From an uncultured Bacillota bacterium (GTDB taxonomy: Bacteria; Bacillota; DTU084): a DNA stretch of 64,000 bases. Numbering within the stretch: the first letter of the stretch is position 1; each line of letters opens with the position of its first letter. Shown here one piece after another: positions 1-54,527 of this stretch. The position numbers were made by a program, and so were the translations under genes. The stretch is from the NCBI GenBank assembly GCA_937888735.1, contig CALASN010000164.1:26643-90642 (forward strand). The letters run 5' to 3'. Under the pieces are notes generated by a model. The model was not told where the DNA came from. It searched no databases and saw nothing but the letters and a program-made list of their open reading frames with translations.

Positions 1-1190
1 GGACTAGCCGTTGCCTGAGGCCAGTCGCAGTACGGCTGCCGGATGTGCTGACAACAGCTAAAGTGGGTGATGTTTTAGGAATTAACGCGTTTCCCTATTT
101 TGCCTCCGGCGCCGCTCACAATCCTCGACCCGAGGAAGAAGAAAAAATCATGTTTCAGCGGCAGCTTGCTTGGGTCAAAGAGGCGAAGATCAAGTATAAC
201 CGCTGGTGGTTTTTCATCAGCGCAGGGGTTAAACCTTATCTTGACATCGGCGCTACCTTTATAACCTGGATGCAAACGGATCCTGAAAAAATCAAACAAG
301 CTAATAACCTTGGGATTTGGTTGTTTGCCAGCAGCAACGAACCTAATTTTTCCGGAATCTCCCCGCAGCAGTGCGTGGCCAAGCTGCAGGAATGTTATCA
401 GGCGATGAAGGCAGTAAATCCTAAAAACATCATGGCAGCTCCGGTTGTGGGCATCGATGCGGAAGACTGGCTGCGGCAATTCTATGAGGCCGGAGGGAAA
501 GAATACTTTGATGTTTGCGATTTTCACGTTTATCAACAGAAGAGTTTACCTGTGCCCCAGGGGTTGGCGCCCGGTTCTCCTGAAGGGGTTTTGCTGCAGT
601 TAGCCCGTCTTAAACAAATCATGGCAGAGTATGGAGATGAAGCCAAACCGATTATCATCACCGAGACGGGTTGTCCCACTTACAGCGGCTATGACTGGGC
701 TGTGGGAAGCACCCTCGAGATGCAGGCCAACTTTGTGGTTCGCGCTCATGTGCTCATGCTTGCCTCCGGCGTGCAGAGAATTTTTTGGTATGCGCTGCAG
801 GACGAAGGGACGGATCCGGACGAAATGGAAGAGAACTTTGGTTTGGTGGATTATGAAGGAAACCCTAAACCAGCATACTTTGCTTATCAAACCATGAGCC
901 GGCAGCTGGGCGAGACCATCTACCGCAGTCCCATAGCCGGCCTCGCCAATCCCAGCTATGGCTACAGTTTTGAAAAGCTCGGCGGCGGGTTTGTCAGCTG
1001 TCTATGGGACGCCCGAGGGCAGAGCACAGTAACGCTTCAGTTGGCAGACGGTCAGGTGGCGCTTGTGAGGCAGAACGGCGAGCGTCAAGTCTTGCCTAAT
1101 CCCACAGGGATCTTGACGCTCACTGTTTCCGAAGCTCCGCTTTATCTTCACTCCGCTCAACCGCTGAAGGTAATCAGCGTACGGCGGTAA
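1..1190 (+). CDS. 5'-truncated (window edge) clan GH-A TIM-barrel glycoside hydrolase (GH5-like). Third paralog of the 4101/7356 family, ending right after the catalytic region and lacking their ~370-aa C-terminal domain
   Basis: Reading frame is open from nt 3. The translation ...RPVAVRLPDVLTTAKVGDVLGINAFPY aligns with ...EPAAVRLPGVLAVEKVGDVFGVNAFPY of both paralogs. NEPNF and ITETGCPTY motifs are present. Confidence 0.75.
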   Translation, partial: TSRCLRPVAVRLPDVLTTAKVGDVLGINAFPYFASGAAHNPRPEEEEKIMFQRQLAWVKEAKIKYNRWWFFISAGVKPYLDIGATFITWMQTDPEKIKQANNLGIWLFASSNEPNFSGISPQQCVAKLQECYQAMKAVNPKNIMAAPVVGIDAEDWLRQFYEAGGKEYFDVCDFHVYQQKSLPVPQGLAPGSPEGVLLQLARLKQIMAEYGDEAKPIIITETGCPTYSGYDWAVGSTLEMQANFVVRAHVLMLASGVQRIFWYALQDEGTDPDEMEENFGLVDYEGNPKPAYFAYQTMSRQLGETIYRSPIAGLANPSYGYSFEKLGGGFVSCLWDARGQSTVTLQLADGQVALVRQNGERQVLPNPTGILTLTVSEAPLYLHSAQPLKVISVRR

Positions 1191-1224
1191 ATTGGCACTT
1201 TATCCAAAAGGGGGAGTTTGCGAA

Positions 1225-3999
1225 ATGAAGAAATTTGCGATTGCCTTTTTCCTTTGTCTTCTGGCCTTCAGCCTGGGTGCGGCGGCCGCAATTCAAATCA
1301 TTGATTTAACTTATAGTCTGCCGGATATTCCGGAACAAGATTCGGATATTATCTCTCAGGATCCAAATTTTAAAAAAATCAATGACGGAAAGATGCTCAC
1401 CGGCGGAGATACGGCTCTTTTCGGAGGCTGGAATTCCAGCAAAGCGATAATCATCGATGTGGATCTGCAAAGGCCGGTTGAGATTGCAAAAATCCAGATT
1501 TGGACCAGTGAATCCGAAACTAATCATCACATGAAAAGCTATAAAGTCTATACCAGCGCGGATCAGGTCTCTTACTCTTTAGTCCGCGAAGTGATCAATC
1601 CCGAACCAAAATTGACGGAAAAACCGGCAACGACGAAGTGTTATCCAAGCAGCGCGGAAAACTTGGGGGTTCGCTCCCGCTATCTGAGGATAGAAGCTTA
1701 TGGTGATCCTACCGCTTATCAGCAAATTATCCAGGAATTGGAGGTTTTCGGGCAAGAATTGCCATACTTGTCCGCAGCAGCGCAGGTAGCTTTGCCCAGA
1801 GCGGGTCAGGAGCTGGCAATCACAGCCAAGGCGATGCCCGGCGCCGCGCTCTCTTTGGCGATCGTGAATTCAGCCTCGGAAGTCGTGAAAAACCTGGGCG
1901 CCAGCTCGCTTGAGACCGTAAGCGTATCTTGGAACGGTAAGGATGAGGAGGGGAACTATGTTCCATCCGGCATGTACTATGCCCGCGGCACGTTCTCTCA
2001 GGGAAGCGACGTCACGGAGAAAAAGCTGCCGCTCTTCATTGATCTCACAGGGCCGCGCGATAGCGCAATAACGAACGTCGGCTATGTTTATCCCGAGGAT
2101 CCCCAGCAGGATAGCGAAGTCTTCTCTTCAGATCCGCAGTGTAATCAGCTTACAGACGGCGGCATCGGCTGGGGCGGTAATACTTCCATTAACAGCACTT
2201 GGAATGCCAAAGACAAGCGAATCATCATCGTCTTTGATCTGCAGCGGCTGCGCGAACTGCATGAAGTAAAGCTTTGGACCAACGAGTTTAACGCGGGAAC
2301 CAGGATCGGCGGCTATGAGCTGCTCGTCAGCGACGACGGCACAGATTTCGCGCCCGTGACAACTGTGTACAATCACGTACCTTATCGACTTGTTACACCC
2401 GTCAACACAGAGATTTTCTCCCTCGACGCCAAGCTGAGTGTAAGGGCTCGTTACGTGAAGATCGTCGCTTTTCCCAGCGGGCGGATCGGTAATTTTTTCA
2501 TTGACGAGGTGCAATTTTGGGGAGAGGCCCTGCCGCAGCTGGAACTTTTGCCAGACGCGATTTCTCCGGCTTTGGGACAAAAAGTGGCGATTGCCTATGA
2601 AGCGGCCGGCGCTGCCCAAATAGAAATTCTCAACGCGCAAGGAGAGATGGTCCGCTCGTTCAGTCCGGCTGCGGCCGGCGGGCTTATAAACTGGGATGGG
2701 AAAACAGAGGAAGGAACAATTCTCGCCGATGGCGCCTATACCGTACGGCTGGAGTCCTGCGAGCGGACAGTGACCTTGAAAAGTCAGGGCCCTGCCGCGC
2801 CAAATATTTCCTCGCCGGCGCTTCCCCTGGAAGGCATTTTGGAGCACAATCAGGACTTGCTGCTGCTCACAGGAAAAGCGGAGGAAGCGGCAACCATCAA
2901 AGTCTTCTCCGGAGCTGAGCAGAGCGAAATCGCTCAGGGACCCTGCCAGCTTTCAGGAGCTTTCAGCGTCAATGTTCCTTTGACAGAAGGCGATAATGAG
3001 CTCGAGGTTTGGGCCTTTGACGAGTTTGGCAACCCCAGCGCCGCAGGCTTGAGCTTCATCGTAAATTATGATCCCCGGCGTCCGTTTGGCATTCCCACCA
3101 TCGTCAATGGGGATTTGCTTTCGCCGGCAAATGCCGACGGTTACCTGGACCAGCTGGCAGTCTCTTTTTACCTGAGGCCTGCCGGTACCGCCTACCTGAA
3201 GGTTCGGGACCATGCCGGCAGTGAAGTGGCTCTGAAAGAGAAAGAGACGGCAGGCGAAGAAGAGATCGCTTTGCTTTGGGATGGCAGGCAAACTGAGTTT
3301 GTGGCGGATGGGATTTACACAGTTGAGGTTGGAGCGAGAGTCGGGGGAGAAGAGATTCGCTTTTTCACGCGAACTGTGAGGGTGGATAACGAGCCGCCGC
3401 AGGATCCAATTTTGCTATATCCGGCTGCAAATGCCGCACTCACCAAGCAAGGCTTGAAATTCAGCTGGGAAAAAGTGGCTGATGCGGCATATTATTTGTT
3501 TTACCTGGGGACGGAAGAGGATCTCCGCCCGCAGACTCCCATGGAGAGCAAGGCGGCTGAACTTGCGGTTAATCTGGAAGCTAAGGGAACTTATTATTGG
3601 CAGGTCAAGGCAGTGGATGAAGCGGGCAATATTTCGGCAGGAAGCGATGCTTCTTTTGTAGTTACAGATCTTGATACCAGCGCTTTCAACCTCAGCAATT
3701 TTGCCATGACTCCCAACCCGTTTACCCCTGGCACTGGCAGGAGAGAAAAGCTTGCCATCAGCTTCAGCCTGCAGCAGGAAGGAGAGGTAACGGTAACTAT
3801 TTATAACTTGGCAGGAAAGCTTGTGAAAAAGCTGCCCGCCGGATGGCTCCAAGCTGGAGATTATCTTTTCACTTGGGACGGCGCCGATGAGCGGGGCAAA
3901 GCGGCGCAAAAGGGCCCGTATCTTGTGAGAGTCACGGCGGCGAATCCTCTTTCCGGCCCTGTGGCTGCCATAACAAGGCCGGTGTTGCTGCTAAAGTAG
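1225..3999 (+). CDS. Secreted multidomain binding/scaffold protein with no catalytic domain. It has a signal peptide, two copies of the ~130-aa beta-sandwich module found at the N-terminus of the GH paralogs, and at least four FlgD-Ig-like modules (WDG...G.Y motif).
   Basis: Hydrophobic N-terminus (MKKFAIAFFLCLLAFSLGAAAA) with a GGGGGAG RBS 7 nt upstream of ATG 1225. The module recurs at aa ~25-160 and ~300-440 and is homologous to GH residues 30-170. FlgD-Ig-like motifs are VSWNGKDEEGNYVPSGMYY, INWDGKTEEGTILADGAYTV, LLWDGRQTEFVADGIYTV and FTWDGADERGKAAQKGPYLV. Confidence 0.7.
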   Translation: MKKFAIAFFLCLLAFSLGAAAAIQIIDLTYSLPDIPEQDSDIISQDPNFKKINDGKMLTGGDTALFGGWNSSKAIIIDVDLQRPVEIAKIQIWTSESETNHHMKSYKVYTSADQVSYSLVREVINPEPKLTEKPATTKCYPSSAENLGVRSRYLRIEAYGDPTAYQQIIQELEVFGQELPYLSAAAQVALPRAGQELAITAKAMPGAALSLAIVNSASEVVKNLGASSLETVSVSWNGKDEEGNYVPSGMYYARGTFSQGSDVTEKKLPLFIDLTGPRDSAITNVGYVYPEDPQQDSEVFSSDPQCNQLTDGGIGWGGNTSINSTWNAKDKRIIIVFDLQRLRELHEVKLWTNEFNAGTRIGGYELLVSDDGTDFAPVTTVYNHVPYRLVTPVNTEIFSLDAKLSVRARYVKIVAFPSGRIGNFFIDEVQFWGEALPQLELLPDAISPALGQKVAIAYEAAGAAQIEILNAQGEMVRSFSPAAAGGLINWDGKTEEGTILADGAYTVRLESCERTVTLKSQGPAAPNISSPALPLEGILEHNQDLLLLTGKAEEAATIKVFSGAEQSEIAQGPCQLSGAFSVNVPLTEGDNELEVWAFDEFGNPSAAGLSFIVNYDPRRPFGIPTIVNGDLLSPANADGYLDQLAVSFYLRPAGTAYLKVRDHAGSEVALKEKETAGEEEIALLWDGRQTEFVADGIYTVEVGARVGGEEIRFFTRTVRVDNEPPQDPILLYPAANAALTKQGLKFSWEKVADAAYYLFYLGTEEDLRPQTPMESKAAELAVNLEAKGTYYWQVKAVDEAGNISAGSDASFVVTDLDTSAFNLSNFAMTPNPFTPGTGRREKLAISFSLQQEGEVTVTIYNLAGKLVKKLPAGWLQAGDYLFTWDGADERGKAAQKGPYLVRVTAANPLSGPVAAITRPVLLLK

Positions 4000-4011
4000 A
4001 TTTATTGAGGC

Positions 4012-4040
4012 GCTGAGAGGGAGCCTTTTGCCTCTCAGCC
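4012..4040 (+). terminator. 9-bp perfect inverted repeat hairpin (GCTGAGAGG...CCTCTCAGC) after the 1225..3999 gene. There is no U-tract, so it may be an attenuator or processing hairpin.
   Basis: Inverted repeat read directly from the sequence. Confidence 0.3.
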
Positions 4041-4100
4041 CCCGCAACGGACAATGGCAGATTTGAAGCTGGGAATGTGAACGCGATGGGAGGTTGAAGG

Positions 4101-7100
4101 TTGGTGAAGCTAAAGAAAGTTTGTCTCTGGCTTTTGATTATAGCGGCGCTGTTTGCTTCCGCCGCCTTGGCGGAGAAAATCCAGGGAATCACTTACACTT
4201 ATCCTGACGAGCCGGGTCAAGATCGGGATATTCCAAACCAGGATCCGCTCCAGACAAAACTGGTCGACGGAATCATAGGCGGCGGAGGTGCCGGCGCAGT
4301 TTGGGGACAGTGGCAGGGGAATAAAGCCATTGTGCGCTTCGATTTGAAACGGAGATATAAGCTCTCTGCCATTGAGATCTGGACCAGTGAAGGGCTGGTA
4401 AACCAGCATCTAGGGCGGGTGGAAATCCTCTCCAGCACTGATGGCAGCGATTATCGCAGAGTCGGTACGCTCAGGAATCCTCAGGAACCGTTAAAGGAAA
4501 AACCTTTGCAGGATAATATTTATTCGTTCTGTGATAAAGATTTGAATTTTGAAGCCAGATACGTCAAACTTACGTTTTATCAGGATAACCTCACTGCCGG
4601 CATTTACCAGCAGGTAATCGAGGAAGTTTGCCTCTGGGGGGAGCCGCTTCCCTTCAGTTACGATTCCCAAATGCCGCCTGTCGAGTTTACTGCTGAGGTC
4701 AATACTTACTCTTCCGTGCGTTTGGAAATTGGCGATTATCTGCAGCGCAATCCCCAGGCTGCTGATTTGCGCGTTTTCGTTGCGGAAGAAGATTTTCGCG
4801 ATGTGGAAGGCAAGGAAGAGTACCGTCAGTGGTGGTATTTGAATGCTCAGAAGCAGACTGTGATCGTAAACGGCTTGACGCCCAATCACACGTATTATAT
4901 AGCGGCAGCTGGGGTGAGCGCGGGTGACAAGCAGCTGCGCTACCTGGAGCCTGCGGCCGTGAGGCTGCCCGGAGTGTTGGCTGTGGAGAAGGTAGGCGAT
5001 GTGTTCGGAGTCAACGCCTTTCCGTATATAGAAACAGGCGCCTCTCACCAGAGGCGAAGCCCTGAGGAAGAGCGAGAGATGTTTCAGCGGCAAATTAAAC
5101 TGGCGCAGGAAGCGGGAATCAAATATAACCGCTGGTGGCGCAATTACTCGTCGGGATTGCTCCCGTATGTCAACGCTGGGATCACCTTTTTGACCGGGCT
5201 GCAGGCTGACGAACAATATATCAGTCAGAGCAACAGCTACGGAACCTGGTTTTTTGAAGGAGGCAACGAGCCTAATTTTGCCGGCACTAAACCCGAGGAG
5301 TATGTGGCCATAATCAAAGAAGGATATAAGGCCATAAAAGCTGTCAACGCAGAAAACATCCTGGCAGCGCCGGTGGTCGGTCCTTCAGACTGGCTGCGGG
5401 AGTTTTATGAAGCCGGCGGAAAAGACTACTTCGATGTGATGGATACGCATCTCTACCCGGCAACGGCATCCCCCGTGCCTGAAGGCCTGCCCAAGGGCGC
5501 GCCGGAGGCGATCTTATTAGCTGTGCAAGAACTGAAAGAGATAATGGCTGATTATCATGATGCGGACAAACCCTTGATCATAACGGAAACGGGCTCTCCA
5601 ACATATACAGGCCGCAGCTGGGCAGTGAGAGGCCTGTCTCAGGAAGAACAGGCCCAAAATATCGTCCGGATTTATTTGCACCTAATCGCCGGTGGCTTCA
5701 AAAGAATATTTTTATATGCGCTGCAGGACGAGGGAACAGATCTCAACAATATGGAGCATAACTTTGGGATCGTAGATTACGAGGGAAAGCCAAAGCTGGC
5801 TTATTACGCATACCAGACCATGACCGGCCAGCTGGGAGAAACTCTCTTTGACGGCCCCTTGAATGGGACGGAAAATCCTTATTACGGCTATCAATTTAAA
5901 AAGTTAGCGCAAACCGGATATATTAGCTGCCTGTGGGATGCGGCCGGCAAAAGCGAGGCGCTCTTAAAGCTCGCCGCAGGAGAGGATGAGGTTATCGTCT
6001 ATGATTTGTTCGGGCACGGACGGGAACTGACGGCCGGCGAGCAACTGACGCTCACGATCTCGGAGAGCCCAATCTACATCCATACTAAAGCGCCGCTTGT
6101 GGTCCAGAGCGCCAAACGGCTGCCACCGCCGCCGACATTAAAGGTGGCGGCCTCCTTACCCAGCGATGTGTTGCTGGCAGGAGATAACTCAAGTTTAAAC
6201 GTGAGCTTGAACAGTACTTTACCCGGAACAGTTCGGGGCACGGTGTCGGTTGAAGGAGAGTTTCAAGCAAGCCCGAGAGATTTTGAAATTACGGACGAAG
6301 CTATCTTAGAGCTGCCGCTTATTTTGCCAAGAAACGCCGCGCCGGGTGTATACATGCTCACAATTAAAGTAGAACTGCCTAAACAAAAAGTTGGCAGCAC
6401 GAATGTGTCGGGAGTACAGGAATTAAAACTTAATTTTTGGCTAGCGTCTCCGTTAGGAGCTAAACCTACCATCTACAAACAGGATTTTACTGGGGACGGC
6501 AGCGAACAGATTCTGCTGACGAACGAAAAGTTGGAAGCCCTGATTGCGCCCGAATTCGGCGGCAGGCTGATTCTGCTGATCGATAAAGAATCCAAAACGA
6601 ATCAGCTCAATGCCGATCTGAAGGAATTCAGCACATCTTGTTCCGGGTCCGGCCTGGGTTTTTGGGATGCGCTTGGCACCTGGACTGCAGATTTGTGGCG
6701 GGCGAAATATGATTATCAGTTGGTAGACTCAGAACAGAACATTGGGGTGAGCATGCAGGCGACGGGACAATCAGGTGTGGTGGTGAGCAAACAGATCTTA
6801 TTGCCTGATTCCAGTGGATGCCTGAATTATAAACTCAAGTTTTTTAATCCCACAAATAGCGAGCTAACGATAAATTACACTACTCATCCGGAATTCACCC
6901 CCGGCGGCGTAGCTGATAGTTACTCGGATGTAATCTATTTACCCTCTAAAGCGGAAATCAGAAAATATCCGTATGTTTCCACCTTGGGAGATCGGGGTTC
7001 TGCAGAGGTAGACCAAGGCTGGTGGGCGATCACAGATCCCAAGGAAAAAGTAATGCTGGGGGCGGTCTTCGATGAGAAGAAGGTCGAAAGCATTAGACAA

Positions 7101-7250
7101 TGGTGGGGAGATGAGGCTTTTAATCTTGAACTGAGCCTCAAACCATTCCAGTTGGCGCCTAAAGAGGAATACGCGTTTGATACGCTATATTTCATAAAGC
7201 AAAGCGACGACTTTCAAGCCATTAAGGAAGAATGGCTCAAACGCAGATGA
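4101..7250 (+). CDS. Giant secreted multidomain glycoside hydrolase. Domain order: signal peptide, beta-sandwich (CBM-like) module, Fn3-like domain, clan GH-A TIM barrel (GH5-like, NEP acid/base and ITETG nucleophile motifs), and a ~370-aa C-terminal domain of unknown function.
   Basis: 1049-aa ORF with a TTG/GTG start and GGGAGG RBS. Motifs GGNEPNF and ITETGSPTY. Fn3-like GLTPNHTYYIA. About 70% identical to ORF 7356..10514. Confidence 0.85.
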   Translation: MVKLKKVCLWLLIIAALFASAALAEKIQGITYTYPDEPGQDRDIPNQDPLQTKLVDGIIGGGGAGAVWGQWQGNKAIVRFDLKRRYKLSAIEIWTSEGLVNQHLGRVEILSSTDGSDYRRVGTLRNPQEPLKEKPLQDNIYSFCDKDLNFEARYVKLTFYQDNLTAGIYQQVIEEVCLWGEPLPFSYDSQMPPVEFTAEVNTYSSVRLEIGDYLQRNPQAADLRVFVAEEDFRDVEGKEEYRQWWYLNAQKQTVIVNGLTPNHTYYIAAAGVSAGDKQLRYLEPAAVRLPGVLAVEKVGDVFGVNAFPYIETGASHQRRSPEEEREMFQRQIKLAQEAGIKYNRWWRNYSSGLLPYVNAGITFLTGLQADEQYISQSNSYGTWFFEGGNEPNFAGTKPEEYVAIIKEGYKAIKAVNAENILAAPVVGPSDWLREFYEAGGKDYFDVMDTHLYPATASPVPEGLPKGAPEAILLAVQELKEIMADYHDADKPLIITETGSPTYTGRSWAVRGLSQEEQAQNIVRIYLHLIAGGFKRIFLYALQDEGTDLNNMEHNFGIVDYEGKPKLAYYAYQTMTGQLGETLFDGPLNGTENPYYGYQFKKLAQTGYISCLWDAAGKSEALLKLAAGEDEVIVYDLFGHGRELTAGEQLTLTISESPIYIHTKAPLVVQSAKRLPPPPTLKVAASLPSDVLLAGDNSSLNVSLNSTLPGTVRGTVSVEGEFQASPRDFEITDEAILELPLILPRNAAPGVYMLTIKVELPKQKVGSTNVSGVQELKLNFWLASPLGAKPTIYKQDFTGDGSEQILLTNEKLEALIAPEFGGRLILLIDKESKTNQLNADLKEFSTSCSGSGLGFWDALGTWTADLWRAKYDYQLVDSEQNIGVSMQATGQSGVVVSKQILLPDSSGCLNYKLKFFNPTNSELTINYTTHPEFTPGGVADSYSDVIYLPSKAEIRKYPYVSTLGDRGSAEVDQGWWAITDPKEKVMLGAVFDEKKVESIRQWWGDEAFNLELSLKPFQLAPKEEYAFDTLYFIKQSDDFQAIKEEWLKRR

Positions 7251-7338
7251 TTCCCACTGGAGGAAAATTACGGCCTGCAAATCCGCCGCGTTCCGTGGGG
7301 ACTATTTGAAGTTGTTGCTCATTTTAACTTTACGAACG

Positions 7339-7368
7339 CGATGGGAGGTTGAAGGTTGGTGAAGCAAA
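7339..7368 (+). repeat. 30/30-nt direct duplicate of 4081..4110 (RBS plus start codon region of the tandem GH paralogs). Similarity extends about 40 nt upstream and into the signal-peptide codons.
   Basis: acgcgatgggaggttgaaggttggtgaagc occurs at both sites. Confidence 0.8.
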
Positions 7369-10300
7369 AGAAAGTTTGTTTTTGGTTTTTGATTATAATA
7401 GCAATGTTTGCTTCCGCCGCCTTGGCGGAGAAAATTCAGGGTATCTCCTACACTTATCCTGACGAGCCAGGCCAAGATTCGGATATTCCACACCAGGATC
7501 CTCTCCGGACAAAATTAACAGATGGAAACATCGGCGCAGGCGGCGGCAGCGCAGTTTGGGGACAGTGGCAGGGGAATAAAGCCATTGTGCGCTTTGATCT
7601 GAAACGGAAATACAATCTCTCTGCCATTGAGATTTGGACCCGCGAAGATTCAAAAGACCAACATCTCGGACGGGTGGAAATCCTCTCCAGCACAAATGGC
7701 AGCGATTATCGCAGGGTCCGTACGCTCAGGAATCCCCGGGAACCGTTAAAGGAAAAACCCTTGAAGCCTAATATTTATTCGTTCGGGGCTCAGGACTTGA
7801 ATGTTGAGGCCAGATACCTAAAACTTACGTTTTATCAGGATAACCTCACTGCCGGCATTTATCAGCAGGTGATTGAGGAAGTTTACCTCTGGGGGGAACC
7901 GCTTCCTTTCGGTTACGATCAAAAAATGCCGCCGGTTGAGTTTACAGCCAAAGTAAATACTTACTCTTCCGTGCGTTTGGAAATTGGCGATTACCTGCAG
8001 CGTAATCCCCGGGCAGCTGATTTGCGCGTTTTCGTTGCGGAAGAAGATTTTCGCGATGCGGAAGGCAAGGAAGAGTACCGTCAGTGGTGGTATTTGGACG
8101 ATCGGAAGCAGACTGTAATCGTAAACGGCTTGACGCCCAATCACACGTATTACATAGCTGCGGCCGGTTTGAGCGCGGATGACAAGCAGCTGCGCTACCT
8201 GGAGCCTGCGGCCGTGAGGCTGCCCGGAGTATTGGCTGTGGAGAAGGTAGGCGATGTGTTCGGAGTCAACGCCTTTCCGTATATAGAAACAGGCTCCTCT
8301 CACCAGATGCGAAGCCCTGAGGCGGAGCGGGAAATGTTTCAACTGCAAGTTGAATTGGCTCAGGAAGCGGGGATCAAATATAACCGCTGGTGGCGTAATT
8401 ACCCGTCAGGCCTTATCCCTTACGTCAATGCGGGCGTCACTTACCAAGTCTTTCTGCCCCAAGACGCGAAGTCAGTCAAAGATACTAACGACTATGGTTC
8501 CTGGCTCTTTGGCGCTGGCAATGAAACAAATCTCAGCGGCACGCAGCCGACAGACTATGTGAAAAGCCTCAAGGAAGGCTATCAGATGATGAAAGCTGTG
8601 AGCCCAGAGAATATGCTGGCGGCGCCGGTGATTCATAGCATTCAGGCCGCGGATTGGCTGCGAGGCTTTTACCAGGCCGGAGGTAAGGACTATTTCGACG
8701 TGATGGATATTCACATTTACCAACAATCCGCCTTACCTGTACCCGAAGGGCTGCCGCAAGGCTCGCCTGAAGGAATGCTGCTGCAAGTGGCGGAGCTGAA
8801 GAAAATTATGAAAGAGTACGGCGACCAGGCGAAGCCGCTCATTACCACAGAGACCGGTTGTCCCACTTATACGGGACGCAGTTGGGCAGTCCGGGGTACC
8901 ACCCAAGAGCAGCAGGCGAACAATATCGTCAGGATGCATTTGCATCTCATCGCCAGCGGCTTCCGCAGGATTTTCTGGTATGCGTTTCAAGATGAAGGAA
9001 CAGATTTGAACAATATGGAGCATAACTTCGGCGTCATTGATTATCACGGCAAGCCAAAGCTAGCTTATTATGCGTACAAAACCATGCTCCGCCAACTGGG
9101 GGAAACGCTCTACCACAGCAGCCTGAAAGGCGCGGAGAATCCCTATTACGGTTATTCGTTCAAGAAGCTGAATGGCGAGGGATATATCTCTTGCCTGTGG
9201 GACGCGGCAGGCAAAAGCGAAGCGATCCTGAAGCTCGCCGCAGAAGAGGGTAAGGTTATCGTCTCTGATCTGTTCGGGAGCGGGAGGGAGCTGACAGCCG
9301 GCGAGCAACTGACGCTTACGATCTCTGAAAGTCCTATTTACATCCATACCAAAGCGCCCATTGTTGTCCTGAGCGCCAAGAGGCTGCCGCCGCCGCCTTC
9401 TTTGAATGTTTCGGCTTCCTTGCCCGATGATATTATGCTGGCCGGAGAAGACAGCGGCTTGAGCGTGAGATTCAACAGCACTTTACCTGGGACTGTTTCT
9501 GGCAATGTATCTGTTGAAGGCCCGTTCCCAGTAGAACAGCGGAAATTTGCCGTGACAGACGAAACGATCTTGGCGCTGCCGCTTGTTTTGCCTAAGAGCG
9601 CCGCGCCGGGCCTATACGCGCTCAAAATCAAAGTGGAGCTTCCCAAACAGAAAGTGGGCGGCATGAATGTGTCGGGGGTACAGGAGCTAAAGCTCAATTT
9701 TTGGTTGGCCGCTCCGGCAGACGCTAAACCTGCCGTTTACAAACGGGATTTCACAGGAGACGGCAGCGAACAGATCCTGCTGACAAACGAAAAGTGGGAA
9801 ATTTTGCTCGCGCCGGAATTCGGAGGCAGACTTATTTTATTAATTGATAAAGCCTCCAAAACCAATCAGTTAAATGCGGACTTCGCTGATTTCAGCAAAG
9901 CGTGCACAGGCGCAGGTTTGGGACTGTGGGATGCGCTCGGCTCTTTTACCGCAGATTTATGGAATGGGAAATACGAATATAACGTTATCGAATCTGAACG
10001 GCAAATAGGCATTAACCTGCAGGCAACGGGCAAATCTGGAGTCCGCGTGAATAAACAGCTTATTTTGCCAAGCTCAGAGGATTATTTCGCTTATAAGGTG
10101 AATTTTACTAATCCCACGGGCCGGCAGCTGACGGTGAATTATAGCACCCATCCCGAATTTACGCCCGGCGGAACTGCGGACAGCACCAGGGATTCTCTTC
10201 AGCTTCCGACGCAGGGAGGAATTAAGAACTTCCCTTACGTTTCCGCGCTGGGAGAGAGAGGCTCTTTGGAACTGACTGAAGGATGGTATGCAATTGCGGA

Positions 10301-10514
10301 CTCAAAGCAGAAGGTTATGTTGGGCGCCGTCTTTGAGGGGAACAAAGTTAAGAGCGCTCGTCAGTGGTGGGGAGATGAGGCTTTCAATCTTGAGCTCACT
10401 CTCAAACCGTTCCAGTTGGCCCCGGGTGAAGCATACGAGTTTGATACTTTATATTTCATCAAGAGAAGCGATGACTTTCAGACGATCAGAGACGAATGGT
10501 TAAAACGTAAGTGA
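7356..10514 (+). CDS. Giant secreted multidomain glycoside hydrolase, tandem paralog of 4101..7250 with the same domain order.
   Basis: 1052-aa ORF. GAGNETNLSG replaces GGNEPNF (the E is retained). ITETGCPTY nucleophile motif. Same C-terminal domain beginning LPPPPSL. Confidence 0.85.
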   Translation: MVKQKKVCFWFLIIIAMFASAALAEKIQGISYTYPDEPGQDSDIPHQDPLRTKLTDGNIGAGGGSAVWGQWQGNKAIVRFDLKRKYNLSAIEIWTREDSKDQHLGRVEILSSTNGSDYRRVRTLRNPREPLKEKPLKPNIYSFGAQDLNVEARYLKLTFYQDNLTAGIYQQVIEEVYLWGEPLPFGYDQKMPPVEFTAKVNTYSSVRLEIGDYLQRNPRAADLRVFVAEEDFRDAEGKEEYRQWWYLDDRKQTVIVNGLTPNHTYYIAAAGLSADDKQLRYLEPAAVRLPGVLAVEKVGDVFGVNAFPYIETGSSHQMRSPEAEREMFQLQVELAQEAGIKYNRWWRNYPSGLIPYVNAGVTYQVFLPQDAKSVKDTNDYGSWLFGAGNETNLSGTQPTDYVKSLKEGYQMMKAVSPENMLAAPVIHSIQAADWLRGFYQAGGKDYFDVMDIHIYQQSALPVPEGLPQGSPEGMLLQVAELKKIMKEYGDQAKPLITTETGCPTYTGRSWAVRGTTQEQQANNIVRMHLHLIASGFRRIFWYAFQDEGTDLNNMEHNFGVIDYHGKPKLAYYAYKTMLRQLGETLYHSSLKGAENPYYGYSFKKLNGEGYISCLWDAAGKSEAILKLAAEEGKVIVSDLFGSGRELTAGEQLTLTISESPIYIHTKAPIVVLSAKRLPPPPSLNVSASLPDDIMLAGEDSGLSVRFNSTLPGTVSGNVSVEGPFPVEQRKFAVTDETILALPLVLPKSAAPGLYALKIKVELPKQKVGGMNVSGVQELKLNFWLAAPADAKPAVYKRDFTGDGSEQILLTNEKWEILLAPEFGGRLILLIDKASKTNQLNADFADFSKACTGAGLGLWDALGSFTADLWNGKYEYNVIESERQIGINLQATGKSGVRVNKQLILPSSEDYFAYKVNFTNPTGRQLTVNYSTHPEFTPGGTADSTRDSLQLPTQGGIKNFPYVSALGERGSLELTEGWYAIADSKQKVMLGAVFEGNKVKSARQWWGDEAFNLELTLKPFQLAPGEAYEFDTLYFIKRSDDFQTIRDEWLKRK

Positions 10515-10568
10515 GCGCTGTGGAGGATTTTGATTGGAGAGAGAAAAATAACAACGAGGTGAGGAAGC

Positions 10569-11933
10569 ATGAAAAAAGTTGTCTGGATAGCGTTGGCGGT
10601 GATCGCTGCAGCGGGGATCTATTTTGGCGCCAGAAAACAGGTGGCTGAAGAGGAACCCAGCAAAGCTGGCAAGAAGGTAGTGGTGGTAATAAATAACGGC
10701 CCCAAAGAGACTAACAAAGCGGAGGTCAAAAAACTGAAGGATACCATCGCTCGCTTCAATAAGGTTTATCCTGAGATTGAAATCCGCTGGACTGATCGCA
10801 GCTATTCCCCGGATAGCTTCGCCACCAGCATGGCCGGAGGCACGGCCGAGGACGTATCCAGCGTTTTTGCCACGGAAAGCTATATAGCCGATCGCGGTTA
10901 CGCTCTGGATCTGACGGAACTGATCAATAACTGGGAGTACAAAGAGCAACTGAATCCCAGGATGCTGCAGCCTTTTACCAAACAAGGCCGTTATTATGGC
11001 TTTCCCGAAACAGGCTATATTATGGCGCTGGCGTACAACAAAAGATTGTTTCGCGAAGCCGGGATTGAAAATCCGCCGCAGACTTGGGAGGAATTTGTTG
11101 CAGCAGCCAAAAAGCTCACCGACCGCAAAACCGGCTGCTCCGGCTTCGGAATCATGGGACGAAGCAACTTTGCGGGTTGGGGTTTGCTGAATTGGGTCTG
11201 GCAAGCAGGAGGCGATTTTGAAAAAGAGCGCAACGGCAAGTGGAAGGCGGTTTTCGCAGAACCGGAAGCGGTGCGCGCGGTGGACTTCGTGAGGTCTTTG
11301 CGCTGGGAGCACGATGTTCTGCAGAGAAACTTGCTGGTTGGCGTGGAAGAGTTGATGCAGAGCTTCGCCGCAGGCCAGCTGGGCATGATGCTCGTCACCA
11401 GCACGACCTATAATATTCCCCTAATGGTCAATCAATATAAAATGAAGCTTGAGGACGTCGGGCTTGCCATGCTGCCCGCCGGGCCAGCGGGCAGAGCAAA
11501 TCAGCTGGGCGGCAGCTTTGCCGTGATCAATCCCACCAGCCCGAAAGAAGTCCAGGAAGCGGCATTTAAATGGATCGCCTGGCGGGCGCTGCAAGGATAT
11601 GATCCCCGGCAGATTCAGAATCTGGCGGACTTGAATCGTAAACAGGGCTTGGTCACAGGCACTTCCTCTGTTCCCATCATGGTAGGCGAAATCGCGAAAA
11701 AAGCAGACGAGGTAATCGATAAAAATCGCGATGTGTTCGTGGTCTTCGATGATGCGGTGGAAGCTTCCAAGTATATTCACCTTGAGCCGCCGTTTTTCTG
11801 CCAGCAGCTGTACTCAGAGTACCTTGGCCCTGTGATTGAGGCTGTCTTAACTAATAAAAACGCCGCTCCCAAACAGAGCTTGGCTAAAGCGGCAGCTAAT
11901 TTTGAAAGCAGATTTTTGGCGCAAGTTAAATGA
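10569..11933 (+). CDS. Extracellular solute-binding protein (ABC transporter family-1 sugar-binding protein). It is membrane-anchored by an N-terminal TM helix and has no lipobox Cys.
   Basis: 454 aa. N-terminus MKKVVWIALAVIAAAGIYFG. Length and composition are typical of a sugar-binding protein. AGGAGG-like RBS (gaggtgagga). Confidence 0.75.
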   Translation: MKKVVWIALAVIAAAGIYFGARKQVAEEEPSKAGKKVVVVINNGPKETNKAEVKKLKDTIARFNKVYPEIEIRWTDRSYSPDSFATSMAGGTAEDVSSVFATESYIADRGYALDLTELINNWEYKEQLNPRMLQPFTKQGRYYGFPETGYIMALAYNKRLFREAGIENPPQTWEEFVAAAKKLTDRKTGCSGFGIMGRSNFAGWGLLNWVWQAGGDFEKERNGKWKAVFAEPEAVRAVDFVRSLRWEHDVLQRNLLVGVEELMQSFAAGQLGMMLVTSTTYNIPLMVNQYKMKLEDVGLAMLPAGPAGRANQLGGSFAVINPTSPKEVQEAAFKWIAWRALQGYDPRQIQNLADLNRKQGLVTGTSSVPIMVGEIAKKADEVIDKNRDVFVVFDDAVEASKYIHLEPPFFCQQLYSEYLGPVIEAVLTNKNAAPKQSLAKAAANFESRFLAQVK

Positions 11934-11991
11934 GATGCGTAGAGGCAGGTTGAGAGCAGCATAAAGATAAAAAGCAAGGAGAGAATCTTAG

Positions 11992-12969
11992 ATGAATAAG
12001 AACATTTTAGTTGGAGACGCGATTCCTAACATGCCGTGGGAAGACAGACCCAAGGATTCCCAGGAGATTATCTGGCGTTCCCGCAGGAACCCAATTATCC
12101 CCAGAGATCTTATTCTCTCGGCCAACAGCATTTTCAACAGCGCGGTTGTGCCTTTCCAAGGCCGGTTTGCCGGCGTCTTTCGCTGCGATGACAAAGCGCG
12201 GGACATGAACCTGCACAAAGGCTTCAGCGAAGACGGCGTCAAGTGGAGGCTGTCCGAAGAGGCCATCTCCTTCAACTGCGAAGCTCCGGAGATCAAATAT
12301 ACCCACGGCTATGATCCCAGGGCTGTTTTCATTGAAGACCGGTATTATATTACCTGGTGCAACGTTTACTGCGGCCAGCCCACCGTCGGCGTGGGCTATA
12401 CTTTCGACTTTGAAGAGTTCCATCAGCTGGAGAACGCCTTTTTGCCGTTTAACCGCAACGGGGTCTTGTTCCCCCGCAGGATCAACGGCGCCTACGCGAT
12501 GCTCAGCCGCCCCAGCGACAGCGGGCATACGCCTTTCGGAGATATTTTTTATAGCCAAAGCCCGGACATGATCCACTGGGGGCATCACAGATTGGTGATG
12601 CGTCCCACAGAAGGCTGGCAGAGCACCAAGATCGGGGCGGGCCCGATTCCAATCGAAACCGCCGAAGGTTGGCTTTTGCTCTACCACGGAGTGCTGACCT
12701 CCTGCAATGGTTTCGTCTACAGCTTTGGCGTAGCCCTTTTAGATTTGGAAGAACCTTGGCGGGTGCTGCACAGGTCCAAGCAATACCTGCTTTCACCGCA
12801 AGCGCTCTACGAGTGCGTGGGCGACGTGCCGAATGTTGTTTTTCCGTGCGCCGCGCTGTGCGACGCGGACAGCGGCAGGATCGCGATTTACTATGGCGCT
12901 GCGGACACGGTGACAGCGCTGGCTTTCACCACGGCTGATGCGCTTTTAGACTTTGCAAAGAGCAAATAG
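11992..12969 (+). CDS. GH130-family glycoside phosphorylase/glycosidase (DUF377 5-bladed beta-propeller), cytoplasmic.
   Basis: 325 aa with no signal peptide. The N-terminal pattern [37 protein letters not shown] matches the GH130 hallmark NPI...FN.AVV...G.F.GVFR. Confidence 0.65.
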
Positions 12970-15421: not shown

Positions 15422-17829
15422 AATGTGAAAGAATTGGATCGGGTTGTGCTAGAGATGAGCTTGAAACCTTTCCGCAGAACTGAACCGGCTTGGCTGCGGA
15501 AGACTTGTCAGGAGGCATTCCGGCAGTGGGGACCGCTGCTTGCCAAAAGCAAAAGAGCCTCTGTGCTGCTGTGGGTATCCGATGGCAGCGAGCTGCTCAC
15601 CTGGCAGGGAGATTTGGCCGCCAGCTTCGAATGGGCAAAATATCTTGGCTTTTGCAATACCATTACCATGCCTACACCGGAAATGAATTCTCGCCGGAGC
15701 GAGTGGCGCGACCATATGCGCCGGCTCCTCCGGTCATGACCTATGAGATTCTCAAGACCATCATCGAGCTTTTGAAACAGACGGCCGAAGCGGAACTGGG
15801 CTTGGAGCTGACAGTTGGCGCCACTTTCGATCCTGGGCCTGAATTTGCTTATTCGCAGTTTAAATATAAAAACCACCCTGAGATCATAGTGGACAGATAC
15901 AACAGTTCCATCGGCGAGACCATAGCTGAGGTGAATCACGCCGCCAAACTGCGCGGCGATTCCGCGCGTTATGCCGCCTTCCCACAGGGAATCCAAGAGG
16001 GAACCGCCTTCGGCACTTTCTTAGGCAAACAGGCGCAAAGCTACTTGACTGCCCTGGGTTTTGACTATCTGTGGCTTTCCAATGGTTTTGGCTTCACCCC
16101 TTATCCGTGGACCATGCTGGGAGACAACTTTGACGGCAGTCAATTCGGCAAGGCTGATTTTGAGAAAGCAAGGCAAACGCTCCTGGCTTTCTGGGAAGAC
16201 TTCACTGCTGCCTGTCATTATCCATTGGAGGCGCGAGGAACTAATTTCACCACTGGGATCGATCTGGCAAAAGATTGCATCCCCTTGGCCGACTTATATA
16301 AATATCTCCCCTTGCCGCCGCCTAATTCCCCCTGGGGAGCTTTGAATTTCGACTTTGGGCTGGAGCTGGCGGGATTCATGTCCAGGATCGCCGAGACCCC
16401 AAAAGGAGATTTCATGTTTCGCTATTACATCAACGATCCTTGGTTTTGGCAAAATCCCTGGTTTGATCTGTACGAAGGCCAGCCTTTTGATCTCTATTGC
16501 CCTTTGGTCACGGCCGGCGTGGACGCTGCGGGCCAGGTGAGAAGCGCGAAGACAATCCAGTTTCTGGCCATAGATACGGCCCGGGGGAAGCTGCCGGAGA
16601 GATGTCCGCGGGAGGTGATTCCGCATCTTCTGCGAGCTGTGGAAGAAGCGCCGGACAACTTTGGGCCTGTGAGCTGGCTTTATCCCTTCGCGGAATATCA
16701 CCGGCTCCCAGGAGATTCTCAGCTGGCGTTTTTCGGAGACTTTTTCGTCCGCAGCGCCATCAACAGCGGCTTGCCTCTCAACACGGTGCTTTCTACTGAC
16801 ACTTTCCGCAAACTCCTGGCGGAGAAAAATGAGCGGCTGTTTGAGACCGTCCTGCTGGCGCCAGTGCCCTGGGACGGCGCTTATGAACGCGAGCTCTGTC
16901 AGTTCATCTCCTCTGGCGGCAAAGTCCTGCTCTACGGGCCGTTCAACGGGGCTGCGGAATTGCGCAGGCTGCTGAACATCTCCCTCAAAGAGCCCTTGGC
17001 AGGGGAAATGGAGCTGGAGCTTTCCCTTGAGACAGACACCTTCCGCGGTCGGGGACCTGACAAATTTAAGCATGATCCTGCAATTTCCGCAGGCGGCGTC
17101 CGCGAGCTTCTGACCGCAGCCGATGGATACACACATGTGGACGCTGTGGCGAGACAAGGAGCGGAGGAGCGGATTTACGCGCTCACGTGCAGCCGGCCGG
17201 ACTGGAGAGGCGGCCGAGTAGGCTGGGTGCGGGGCTCCCTGCCGTTTTCGACCAAACGGGAGAGCGGACAAGAGCTGAGAATGCCGAAGAATTATCCGCC
17301 GGCGTATTTTGACGCCTCTGTGCTGCCCAGATATCAGCTGAGCGCGTTTGGTTACAGATTGCGCCAGGTGCGGGAAGACGCTGCGACTCCCGCCAGCTTA
17401 CTTTTGGTTTCCAGACACAACAACAGCTTTGTTTTCTCCGGCTGTCAGACCAACCAGACCACAGAACTGCTTTTGGAATTTCCCGACGGCGCGCCTGTGA
17501 TCTCGGGCAGGGAGACGCCGGTTGCCGGCAGGCAGGCGGGTTATGTCTTCTCTCGGACCATCAGGGAAAACTGCCGCCTGTTTGTGGAGCAAAAGGAGCG
17601 GTCCGTGCTCGCCTGTCGGGAGCGGCGGCCTTTCCCGGCAGACAAAGTGCGACGTTTGCTGGTTACAAATTTGCAAGCAGCTACGGTCACGGTTTTTCCC
17701 CCCGGGGACAGAATGGCGGAATTTCTGGCAGAGGAAAATGGAATCCGGCTTGGAGAAGAGAGGCTCCGGCGCCGGAAAGAGAAAATCATCCTGTACGATA
17801 TCAACGGCACACTTGAGCTAGCCTGGTGA
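15422..17829 (+). pseudogene. Frameshifted gene for a ~800-aa cytoplasmic protein of unknown function (possible glycoside hydrolase or phosphorylase). The N-terminal ~85 codons are in frame 2 and the rest in frame 1 (ORFs 15383..15739 and 15490..17829), joined by a single-nt indel near 15670-15700.
   Basis: Frame 2 starts MNVKELDRVVLEMSLKPFRR with a GGGAGG RBS and reads protein-like until about 15690. Frame 1 reads protein-like from ...GNEFSPERVARPYAPAPPVMTYEILKTII onward. No X XXY YYZ slippery heptamer is present. Confidence 0.55.
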
Positions 17830-52391: not shown

Positions 52392-54527
52392 TTGTTGCGC
52401 GTCACGGTAGCTCAGCACGCAGGGTTCTGCTTTGGGGTAGAGCGGGCGATGAAGATGGCGATGGAGGAACTGGACGGTCATCCCCTGTACTGCCTTGGCC
52501 AATTGATACATAATCCTCAGATTGTGAAGTTGCTTGCTGATAAAGGGTTACAAGTAATCGAGAATCTGGAGGAAACCTCTGGCGGTACCTTAATCGTTCG
52601 TTCCCACGGTTTGTCGAAAGATGTGATCAGAGCGGCTGAGGATCGTGGCTTGCGAGTGGTAGACGCGACTTGTCCTTTTGTGAGCAGAGCGCAGAAACTG
52701 GCATCCCAGCTGGTTTCCCAAGGATATCAGGTGATTTTGGTAGGAGACCCTGATCATCCGGAGGTTTGCGCCATAGTTGGCTCAGCGGGCGGGGAGGTAA
52801 TAGTGGCAAGCTCTCCTGACATGCTGAGACAGCTGAAGGTGAAGCCTGTAGTTGGGCTTTTAGCACAAACAACTCAGGACTTAGCCAATTTCAAAGCCTG
52901 TGCCGACGTCTTAATAGACGAAGCGCGAGAGCTGCGAGTTTATAACACGATTTGTACAGCCACAGAAAAAAGAATGGCAGCCGCGGTTGAGTTGGCTGGG
53001 AAAGTTCAGCTGATGATCGTCATCGGCGGAAAGAACAGCGCCAATACAAAGCGGCTAGCCCAGGTTTGTCGAGCTGCGGGAGTGACCACATATCACATTG
53101 AAACCGAGGCCGAATTGAAGCCAGAATGGTTCACGGGTCTCAGTCAGGTTGGGGTTACAGCCGGAGCATCGACGCCCAAATGGATGATCGAGGGGGTAGT
53201 GAGGAAAATGATTGAAATTGACGAACAGAAAGATCAGCAGGAAACTGTTGCGGCTGAGCCTCAGCCGCAAGGTGAAGCCACCGATAAGGAGGTGGCTTCT
53301 GTCGGGGAGGCCCCTGCTGAAACAACCCAAACCCAGTCGGCGGAACCCGAGGAATCACACATGGAGTCTCAGGCCTTCCCTACAATCAATCAGGGTGACA
53401 TCATCAAAGGAAAGGTGATTCAGGTTACCGACAATGAGGCCATGGTGGACATCGGGTATAAATCCGAAGGGATAATCCATAAGGGCGAGCTGGCATACCG
53501 GCCTGTGGCATCGGCAGAAGAGCTGCTGAAAGTTGGCGACGAGATCGATGTGTACGTGGAGAAAGTAGACGACGGAGAAGGGAACCCTGTTTTATCCAAG
53601 CGCAAGGCTGACGCAGCTCGCTCTTGGGTAGTGCTGGAAGAAGCATACCACAAAAATGAAGCCATTGAGGCGCCGGTAATTGAGCGGGTTAAAGGCGGAT
53701 TGCTAGTGGATGTCGGCGTGCGCGGCTTCGTGCCGGCATCTCAGGTTGATCGCCGCTTTGTGGATAATCTGGAACAGTTTATCGGGCAGGTCTGGAAGTT
53801 GAAAATACTCGAGATGGATCGGGAACGGAATAATGTGGTGCTCTCCCACAAAGCCGTACTGGACGAGGAGTTTCAGTCCCACAAACAAGACGTCTACGAT
53901 TCCCTGAAGCCCGGCGAGATCGTAGACGGAGAGGTCAAAAGGCTTACGGACTTCGGCGCTTTCATAGATATCGGCGACGGTGTGGAAGGCCTTTTGCACG
54001 TCTCGGAGATGGCCTTCAGCCGCGTGAAACATCCTTCAGATGTGGTCTGCGAAGGCCAGAAGATTAAAGTGATGATTTTGGGAGTGGATAAAGAACGGGA
54101 GCGCATCTCCTTAGGCCTTAAACAGACCTTGCCGGATCCATGGGATCACGTTGCGGAAAAATATCCTGAAGGTTCGCTGGTTGAAGGCGAGGTAACCAGA
54201 CTGGTGGACTTTGGCGCTTTTGTGAAACTGGAAGACGGCGTGGAAGGGCTGGTGCATATTTCACAGTTGGCCAATCGTCATGTGGCAAAACCGGATGAAG
54301 TTGTGCACTCCGGAGAACGCGTAAAGGTCAAGGTGCTCTCGGTGGATCCTGAACGTCACCGCATCGGGTTGAGCGTCCGGGAAGCGGAACAGCCTGCGAA
54401 ACAACAGACCAAGCCTGAGAACCATAATCATGCAGACAGCGATTATCAGCAGTCTGCACCGGAGGTGACCTTAGGAGATCTGTTCGGGGATCTGTTTAAG
54501 GACCAGAAGGAAGACAAAGATAACTAA
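52392..54527 (+). CDS. ispH-rpsA: Bifunctional 4-hydroxy-3-methylbut-2-enyl diphosphate reductase (IspH/LytB) fused to ribosomal protein S1 (four S1 domains).
   Basis: The N-terminal ~280 aa are IspH (VAQHAGFCFGVERA, conserved Cys ligands). The C-terminal ~400 aa hold repeated S1 motifs (G.V....D.GAF...G..GL.H.S). Confidence 0.85.
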   Translation: MLRVTVAQHAGFCFGVERAMKMAMEELDGHPLYCLGQLIHNPQIVKLLADKGLQVIENLEETSGGTLIVRSHGLSKDVIRAAEDRGLRVVDATCPFVSRAQKLASQLVSQGYQVILVGDPDHPEVCAIVGSAGGEVIVASSPDMLRQLKVKPVVGLLAQTTQDLANFKACADVLIDEARELRVYNTICTATEKRMAAAVELAGKVQLMIVIGGKNSANTKRLAQVCRAAGVTTYHIETEAELKPEWFTGLSQVGVTAGASTPKWMIEGVVRKMIEIDEQKDQQETVAAEPQPQGEATDKEVASVGEAPAETTQTQSAEPEESHMESQAFPTINQGDIIKGKVIQVTDNEAMVDIGYKSEGIIHKGELAYRPVASAEELLKVGDEIDVYVEKVDDGEGNPVLSKRKADAARSWVVLEEAYHKNEAIEAPVIERVKGGLLVDVGVRGFVPASQVDRRFVDNLEQFIGQVWKLKILEMDRERNNVVLSHKAVLDEEFQSHKQDVYDSLKPGEIVDGEVKRLTDFGAFIDIGDGVEGLLHVSEMAFSRVKHPSDVVCEGQKIKVMILGVDKERERISLGLKQTLPDPWDHVAEKYPEGSLVEGEVTRLVDFGAFVKLEDGVEGLVHISQLANRHVAKPDEVVHSGERVKVKVLSVDPERHRIGLSVREAEQPAKQQTKPENHNHADSDYQQSAPEVTLGDLFGDLFKDQKEDKDN

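Follow-up and report, generated by a model that had tools for sequence, protein, structure and literature searches.

A probable divergent CBM32-like discoidin module shared by GH39-like glycosidases and an immunoglobulin-repeat protein of an uncultured Bacillota bacterium

The stretch of DNA analysed here (the window) comprises 64,000 nucleotides of contig CALASN010000164.1 (positions 26,643 to 90,642 of the forward strand), from assembly GCA_937888735.1 of an uncultured Bacillota bacterium. Near its start lie genes for secreted glycosidases and for a protein of immunoglobulin (Ig)-like repeats, ORF1, which share a repeated module of about 165 amino acids. We find that this module is, with a probability of roughly three in four, a divergent member of the F5/8 type C (discoidin) superfamily, similar to family 32 of the carbohydrate-binding modules (CBMs) and carried on the secreted glycosidases and on ORF1. 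The assignment is based on the repeats themselves, on homology to F5/8 type C and CBM32 domains, on the predicted fold and on synteny conserved in relatives. The discoidin fold is named CBM32 by CAZy when it is attached to carbohydrate-active enzymes. An initial annotation of this DNA had described a beta-sandwich module present at least four times in 10 kb and possibly outside the discoidin and CBM32 families; the repetition is borne out by motif, alignment, BLASTP and hidden Markov model (HMM) searches, and the length it gave, about 130 amino acids, proved too short. The genes concerned and the module copies that they encode within the window are the following.

3..1190, plus strand: GH0, a third GH39-like glycosidase truncated by the window edge to its 3' portion of 395 codons, with the frame still open at base 3; Pfam PF11790, E 5e-9
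1225..3999, plus strand: ORF1, secreted, 924 amino acids from the ATG; Pfam FlgD_ig 1.4e-37 (4 stretches), F5_F8_type_C 5.7e-14 (2 stretches), Big_6 3.9e-9
1285..1779, plus strand: module copy 1 (ORF1 residues 21-185), directly after the signal peptide; in alignment A1; HMM domain score 266.8; best PF00754 stretch at residues 56-158
2080..2559, plus strand: module copy 2 (ORF1 residues 286-445); in alignment A1; HMM domain score 244.5; best PF22633 stretch at residues 318-413
4101..7250, plus strand: GH2, a secreted glycosidase of 1049 amino acids with a TTG start; weak Pfam matches to GH5, GH39 and Glyco_hydro_cc
4167..4670, plus strand: module copy 3 (GH2 residues 23-190); in isolation PF00754 28.8 bits, E 1.5e-6; the sequence used for the AlphaFold model
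7356..10514, plus strand: GH3, a tandem paralogue of GH2 with 1052 amino acids; PF00754 28.7 bits; 76% nucleotide identity to GH2
7422..7925, plus strand: module copy 4 (GH3 residues 23-190); in alignment A1; 82% identity to copy 3

The window thus holds four copies, two in ORF1 and one each in GH2 and GH3, and the motif Y.[YL]P[DE].P.QD...DP....L.DG occurs at residues 30 and 287 of ORF1 and at residue 32 of both glycosidases. When the segments of about 165 residues are aligned (alignment A1), 32 columns are invariant and identities range from 34 to 38%, with 82% for the GH2/GH3 pair. Pairwise BLASTP between copies gave 33-37% identity with E values of 1.4e-23 to 8e-39, and 1e-104 for GH2 against GH3, a likeness far beyond chance. 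No fifth copy was found when an HMM of the four was run against the six-frame translation of the whole window, the next best match having an E value of 0.38. As the initial annotation had noted, a CBM-like module heads both giant glycosidases, directly after the signal peptide of GH2 and of GH3; the protein that it described as non-catalytic and 925 amino acids long does carry two modules and no detectable catalytic domain, though its length from the ATG at 1225 is 924.

Further copies lie just outside the window. The exact ORF1 protein is recorded on a metagenome contig in ENA (L001), of which base 4016 corresponds to base 1 of the window. The open reading frame (ORF) at 3-1190, which aligns with GH2 from about residue 283, is completed there as the GH0 gene (L001 2722-5205), with a product of 827 amino acids that has two tandem N-terminal modules after its signal peptide (HMM domains at residues 22-187 and 182-347). 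Since GH0 adds these two copies upstream of the window, the full locus has six module copies in four consecutive genes. GH0 is also a shorter paralogue, without the C-terminal region of about 360 residues found in GH2 and GH3.

The family assignment comes from profile searches of increasing breadth. In Pfam, ORF1, GH2 and GH3 match both PF00754 (F5/8 type C, discoidin; 127 model positions, gathering cut-off 28.2 bits) and PF22633 (NedA-like galactose-binding domain). The PF00754 cut-off is reached by ORF1 with 52.8 bits (E 5.7e-14, over two stretches), by GH3 with 28.7 bits and by the isolated GH2 module with 28.8 bits. Against solved structures, the profile of the four window copies gave weak CBM32 matches, led by 4lks (E 0.0016) and followed by the N-terminal CBM32 of CpGH89. 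A second alignment (A2) holds 34 domains of the wider subfamily to which the module belongs, of which 33 match PF00754 (best E 3.7e-15) and 29 match PF22633. The A2 profile matches 6q63, the C-terminal F5/8 type C domain of the Bacteroides GH20 enzyme BT0459, at E 2.4e-13; CBM32-3 of CpGH31 (4lks) at 7.7e-12; the CBM32 of CpGH84C (2j1a/2j7m) at 3.4e-11; the galactose-binding module of a Micromonospora sialidase (2bzd) at 1.1e-9; and 2v5d at 1.8e-9. Neuropilin b domains, domain 1 of galactose oxidase and the C domains of factors V and VIII are also matched by this profile.

An AlphaFold model of the GH2 module, built with the 34-sequence alignment, reached a predicted local distance difference test (pLDDT) score of 95.3 and a predicted template-modelling (pTM) score of 0.90; it supersedes an earlier run with the four window copies only, for which pLDDT was 66.5 overall and below 50 at residues 1-48. 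By fold comparison the predicted structure is a discoidin jelly roll, a beta-sandwich of the galactose-binding domain-like superfamily, in agreement with the beta-sandwich proposed at the outset. In the model, the acidic motif includes two short helices, one at residues 21-25 and one at 31-33. This motif looked unfamiliar because the local alignment to the Pfam model begins only at model position 16, at 'L.DG'. In the A2 profile, the sialidase CBM32 aligns from position 19 ('sDaelvetdpnnkkLtdGn' against 'DSEETAREDGRASNVIDGN') and galactose oxidase from position 24, and QD.DI..QDP...L.DG therefore corresponds to the N-terminal segment that discoidin domains canonically have. The alternative that the N-terminal 30 residues form an extension specific to the subfamily was rejected on the same alignments, which put most of the motif inside the canonical domain. 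CBM32 modules have a structural Ca2+ site and a short helix that caps one end of the sandwich, and by analogy the motif segment may belong to this cap. All four window copies have D34 and E153, and E153 is kept almost throughout the 34 sequences as well; the two residues may be counterparts of metal ligands in galactose oxidase and CBM32.

Several observations weigh against this assignment or narrow what it implies. Pfam scores of single copies are right at the cut-off for PF00754, which full-length GH2, with 24.0 bits, fails to reach. The binding site also differs from that of the CpGH31 modules. In CpGH31 the binding-site histidines are His990 in CBM32-1 and His1671 in CBM32-3, with Tyr1674 as a further binding-site residue of CBM32-3 (PMC5291390). 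Tyr1674 (in 4lks) aligns with W49, invariant in our modules, whereas His1671 aligns with W46 in GH2 and GH3, with F in the first copy of ORF1 and with N in the second. With W, F or N in place of the histidine, the modules are unlikely to have a canonical galactose site. A site of histidine plus aromatic residues is, however, characteristic of one subgroup and not of CBM32 in general; CBM32 binding sites vary, so the difference does not speak against membership.

When 1.84 billion representative proteins were searched exhaustively by HMMER with the four-copy profile, only 394 passed E<=1e-3, and 8 passed E<=1e-30; of these 8, three belong to the locus itself. The copies are therefore rare and divergent. 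A word-indexed homologue search gave no match with the GH2 module alone and two weak fragments with the 34-sequence alignment, no NCBIfam model matches GH2 or GH3, close relatives are unnamed or called 'hypothetical protein', and the per-copy Pfam scores are marginal. All this would suit a new CBM-like family unrelated to discoidin and CBM32, which the initial annotation had put forward. We nevertheless consider such a family highly improbable, given the significant PF00754 matches, found in 33 of the 34 subfamily members, the matches to solved CBM32 and F5/8 type C domains (E 2e-13 to 1e-9), the same fold in the structural matches and the alignment of the motif region to the canonical discoidin N-terminus. 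A strong Pfam match to an established CBM or F5/8 type C family of known specificity was to have spoken against a new family; an established family is indeed matched, and a known specificity is not something that it could supply, as F5/8 type C and CBM32 domains have no single specificity.

Within the discoidin superfamily, two other roles deserve consideration. The module could mediate protein-protein assembly, holding the glycosidases and the Ig-repeat protein in a surface complex in the manner of the discoidin-fold proteins IFT25, APC10/DOC and muskelin. This is quite unlikely in our view: the same module is present on all partners, leaving no complementary pair, and each of its nearest sequence relatives is either a lectin-type domain or a module of a bacterial glycosidase. 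Where bacterial glycoside hydrolases carry discoidin domains, these are in the great majority of cases CBMs. Alternatively, the bound glycan could belong to the producer's own envelope, as a cell-wall or capsule polymer rather than a substrate, with the module serving as an anchor. In favour of this, all four proteins carry the module directly at the N-terminus, and their catalytic domains, where present, are similar to PslG, which hydrolyses an exopolysaccharide; moreover, Pfam finds no SLH domain in these proteins (one is present in a distant relative, P0020), and no sortase motif was noticed in their translations, for which no dedicated search was run. Yet ORF1 already has a C-terminal sorting-like domain, and the locus has genes for uptake and catabolism of the sort expected in substrate foraging, namely those for a solute-binding protein (SBP), a GH130 and a GH42 protein, so that anchoring to the cell's own envelope seems unlikely as well.

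The strict form of the motif occurs in 6 of the 150 best representatives, which come from the window organism, the metagenome-assembled genome (MAG) Clostridia bacterium DTU084, a Logan contig (L003) and a more distant protein (P0046); it thus marks a rare clade of three related genomes and P0046. A profile scan of genomes with A1 found one locus, in MAG Clostridia bacterium DTU084 (L002, LFTB01000086.1), which comes from biogas reactors (PMC4736482). The order there is SBP, two-module glycosidase, two-module ORF1 homologue (57% identity) and one-module glycosidase (70% identity), and a GH130 gene follows at some distance downstream. On the Logan contig, a two-module glycosidase and an ABC transporter accompany a related FlgD-Ig protein with one module (P0004), together with three genes that lack annotation. 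The conserved order of glycosidase, Ig-repeat protein and glycosidase in DTU084, together with the content of the Logan contig, fits a functional partnership. Copies at the same position in different genomes are the most alike, and the module duplications therefore predate the split of these organisms. Across the 16 modules of the three genomes the residues kept are Y10, P13, Q18-D19, D26-P27, K31-L32, D34-G35, G40, W49, D59, T73, E75, S90, N104-P105, L126, R131-Y132, E153-V154 and G158, with a histidine near 82, between E75 and S90.

How might such a module act? The similarity to CBM32 suggests that the modules bind carbohydrate, and their most likely role is to bring ORF1 and the GH39-like hydrolases to one and the same glycan. 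A sugar epitope would be bound by loops at one end of the beta-sandwich, and the acidic N-terminal segment with its short helix would lie, by analogy with CBM32, at the capped end. Residues of the loops that do not belong to the core are kept in 16 of 16 copies (T-x-E after the 'IW' strand, a histidine about 5 residues further on, N-P and W49), and from this we infer one shared ligand for all copies, by which the enzymes and ORF1 would be directed to a single polysaccharide. Tandem or paired copies could strengthen binding through avidity, with ORF1 as a putative non-catalytic partner that binds or presents the glycan. One may speculate further that the strict-motif clade, which has the signature Y.YP....QD.....QDP...KL.DG....GG, an invariant T-x-E and, in the loops, a nearby histidine and N-P but no counterpart of the CpGH31 binding-site histidine, is a CBM32 subfamily with an undescribed specificity, possibly for a microbial exopolysaccharide in view of the PslG- and GH39wh2-like catalytic domains, and that ORF1 is a surface glycan-binding protein that works with adjacent outer-membrane-barrel-like proteins and an ATP-binding cassette (ABC) importer. 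This would amount to a capture system resembling a polysaccharide utilisation locus (PUL) in an uncultured anaerobic-digester lineage labelled Clostridia. We hold this extended model to be rather doubtful.

The main value of these results lies in a correction of annotation, in that the N-terminal modules of unnamed or 'hypothetical' proteins can be labelled F5/8 type C (CBM32-like). A rare and strongly conserved signature on three enzymes and on a partner without a detectable catalytic domain also nominates a few modules for glycan-array screening, which could reveal the substrate of an uncharacterised group of GH39-like enzymes in anaerobic-digester bacteria. The practical value is modest: the module is an ordinary feature and no new domain family, and it opens no long-standing question.

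Both complete glycosidases in the window carry distant catalytic domains. GH2 consists of a signal peptide, the module, a linker domain of about 100 amino acids, a GH39-like (beta/alpha)8 catalytic domain with a beta-sandwich and a C-terminal region of about 360 amino acids. With phmmer the catalytic domain matches GH39wh2 (5jvk, E 1.5e-8), PslG (E 1e-4) and GH39 xylosidases (E 2e-4); 5JVK and PslG are GH39 members (PMC6933502). Against PF01229 (GH39) the catalytic domains score 17.5-18.7 bits, the cut-off being 26, and they are best described, from these similarities, as distant GH39-like members of clan GH-A. The C-terminal 260 or so residues of GH2 (about 6470-7250) and GH3 (about 9730-10514) show a very weak likeness to PF09095, the C-terminal domain of alpha-amylase/4-alpha-glucanotransferase (E 0.02); this region has no other annotation and is missing from GH0. 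At the DNA level, GH2 4079-5000 and GH3 7334-8255 are 84-94% identical over the first 900 nucleotides, which encode the module and linker, and the catalytic parts are 65-78% identical. An identical stretch of 22 nucleotides, GAACGCGATGGGAGGTTGAAGG, precedes the start codon of each gene. The higher 5' identity could result from gene conversion or from stronger constraint on the 5' part.

ORF1 is composed of a signal peptide, module A, FlgD_Ig, module B, FlgD_Ig, Big_6, FlgD_Ig, an fn3/Big_13-like region and a C-terminal FlgD_Ig, and no catalytic family was matched in it in Pfam. Besides the two modules, its domains are as follows.

1801..2007, plus strand: FlgD-Ig-like domain 1 (residues 193-261), the spacer between the modules; jackhmmer E 1.4e-27, Pfam FlgD_ig
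2572..2769, plus strand: FlgD-Ig-like domain 2 (residues 450-515); jackhmmer E 8.3e-25, Pfam FlgD_ig
2848..3045, plus strand: Big_6 bacterial Ig domain (residues 542-607); Pfam PF17936, 3.9e-9
3133..3348, plus strand: FlgD-Ig-like domain 3 (residues 637-708); jackhmmer E 3.1e-28, Pfam FlgD_ig
3436..3663, plus strand: possible fn3/Big_13-like region (residues 738-813) with weak evidence and approximate boundaries; fn3_SORL1 at residues 738-797 with 20.3 bits (below the cut-off of 27), Big_13 at residues 786-813 with 29.0 bits
3730..3960, plus strand: C-terminal FlgD-Ig-like domain (residues 836-912); jackhmmer, best Pfam FlgD_ig stretch at residues 844-907, CHU_C 1.3e-10

The C-terminal domain of ORF1 also passes the NCBIfam model TIGR04183, the type A sorting domain of the type IX secretion system (T9SS), with 36.6 bits against a cut-off of 23, and the same stretch has a strong FlgD_Ig match. 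The TIGR04183 match is surprising next to the Clostridia label of the closest genome, since T9SS is a system known from the Bacteroidota group. Thirteen nucleotides past the ORF1 stop there is a perfect 9-bp inverted repeat, GCTGAGAGG / CCTCTCAGC, at 4012-4039, with a 10-nucleotide loop and no T-tract; a consensus terminator scan did not list it.

Downstream of GH3, genes for an SBP, a GH130 protein, a membrane protein of the major facilitator superfamily (MFS) type, a LacI-type regulator, a GH42 protein and further sugar-related functions follow. The first two are these.

10569-11933, plus strand: ABC-transporter solute-binding protein; Pfam SBP_bac_1, 1.1e-28
11992-12969, plus strand: protein of the GH130 mannoside phosphorylase family; Pfam Glyco_hydro_130, 7.4e-69

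The SBP and GH130 neighbours, which are both present in the DTU084 locus too, mark the locus as a glycan-utilisation cluster. A promoter and terminator scan of 1-12100 did no better than with shuffled sequence and is thus uninformative on operon structure. Unannotated proteins of about 295, 540 and 580 amino acids adjoin module-bearing genes, both just upstream of the window (L001 2-895 and 954-2681) and on the Logan contig (L003 4499-8820). The two encoded on L001 end in Phe, and the 295-residue protein of L003 has weak matches to outer-membrane barrels (FadL/Toluene_X 3e-6, TraF_2 9e-6, PorP_SprF 3e-3). These barrel-like neighbours are a hint that the lineage may possess an outer membrane and a capture system of the PUL type.

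In the sugar-utilisation region, an ORF of 779 amino acids (15490-17829) has no Pfam match at E<=1e-3. Long antisense ORFs of 176-241 amino acids at 2128-2847, 4491-5216 and 7818-8348, all on the minus strand, overlap ORF1, GH2 and GH3; none of them has independent support, and they probably arise from the codon composition of the coding strand. Outside this region the window holds housekeeping genes. An ORF of 711 amino acids (52392-54527) encodes LytB (IspH) fused with four S1 RNA-binding domains, and the other genes between 33 and 64 kb are ordinary ones, among them those for aromatic amino-acid synthesis, tryptophanyl-tRNA synthetase (TrpRS), ScpA and aconitase.

Compared with known discoidin systems, the module shares with PF00754 and PF22633 significant HMM matches, the beta-sandwich fold, here predicted, and the hallmarks 'x-D-G' before Trp, the R-Y strand and 'E-V-x-x-x-G' in the last strand. 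It differs from PF00754 in being about 165 residues long, against the 127 positions of the model, and in its N-terminal strand and acidic cap (Y.YP....QD.....QDP), which have diverged so far that the Pfam alignment leaves them out. Unlike classic CBM32 and PF00754 domains, it has a Gly-rich insertion between 'DG' and Trp (DGxxGxGGxxAVWGxW). The closest systems by sequence and structure are the CBM32s of Clostridium perfringens glycosidases (CBM32-3 of CpGH31, 4lks; CpGH84C, 2j1a; CpGH89), the Micromonospora viridifaciens sialidase (2bzd/1eut) and 6q63. These modules are likewise appended to secreted glycosidases, sometimes in multiple copies, and W49 aligns with Tyr1674 of 4lks; identity to them is however 12-20%, and the catalytic partner in our locus is distantly GH39-like rather than GH20, GH31, GH84 or GH89.

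A third comparison is with the multi-discoidin surface proteins of Clostridia that carry FIVAR or SLH domains, such as MBP3360649.1 ('FIVAR domain-containing protein'). The strict Y.YP/QD/QDP motif is absent from them, identity to the window copies is 20-30%, and the spacers are FIVAR there and FlgD-Ig in ORF1. The module has in common with these proteins the wider signature of the subfamily seen in the weaker HMMER matches, which often have 2-10 copies per protein: an N-terminal TY.Y...D....D(P)....KL..G, followed by ...W...FDL...Y.I..VDVW. As in ORF1, their repeat unit consists of a discoidin domain and a spacer of about 90-100 residues, a FIVAR domain where Pfam detects one.

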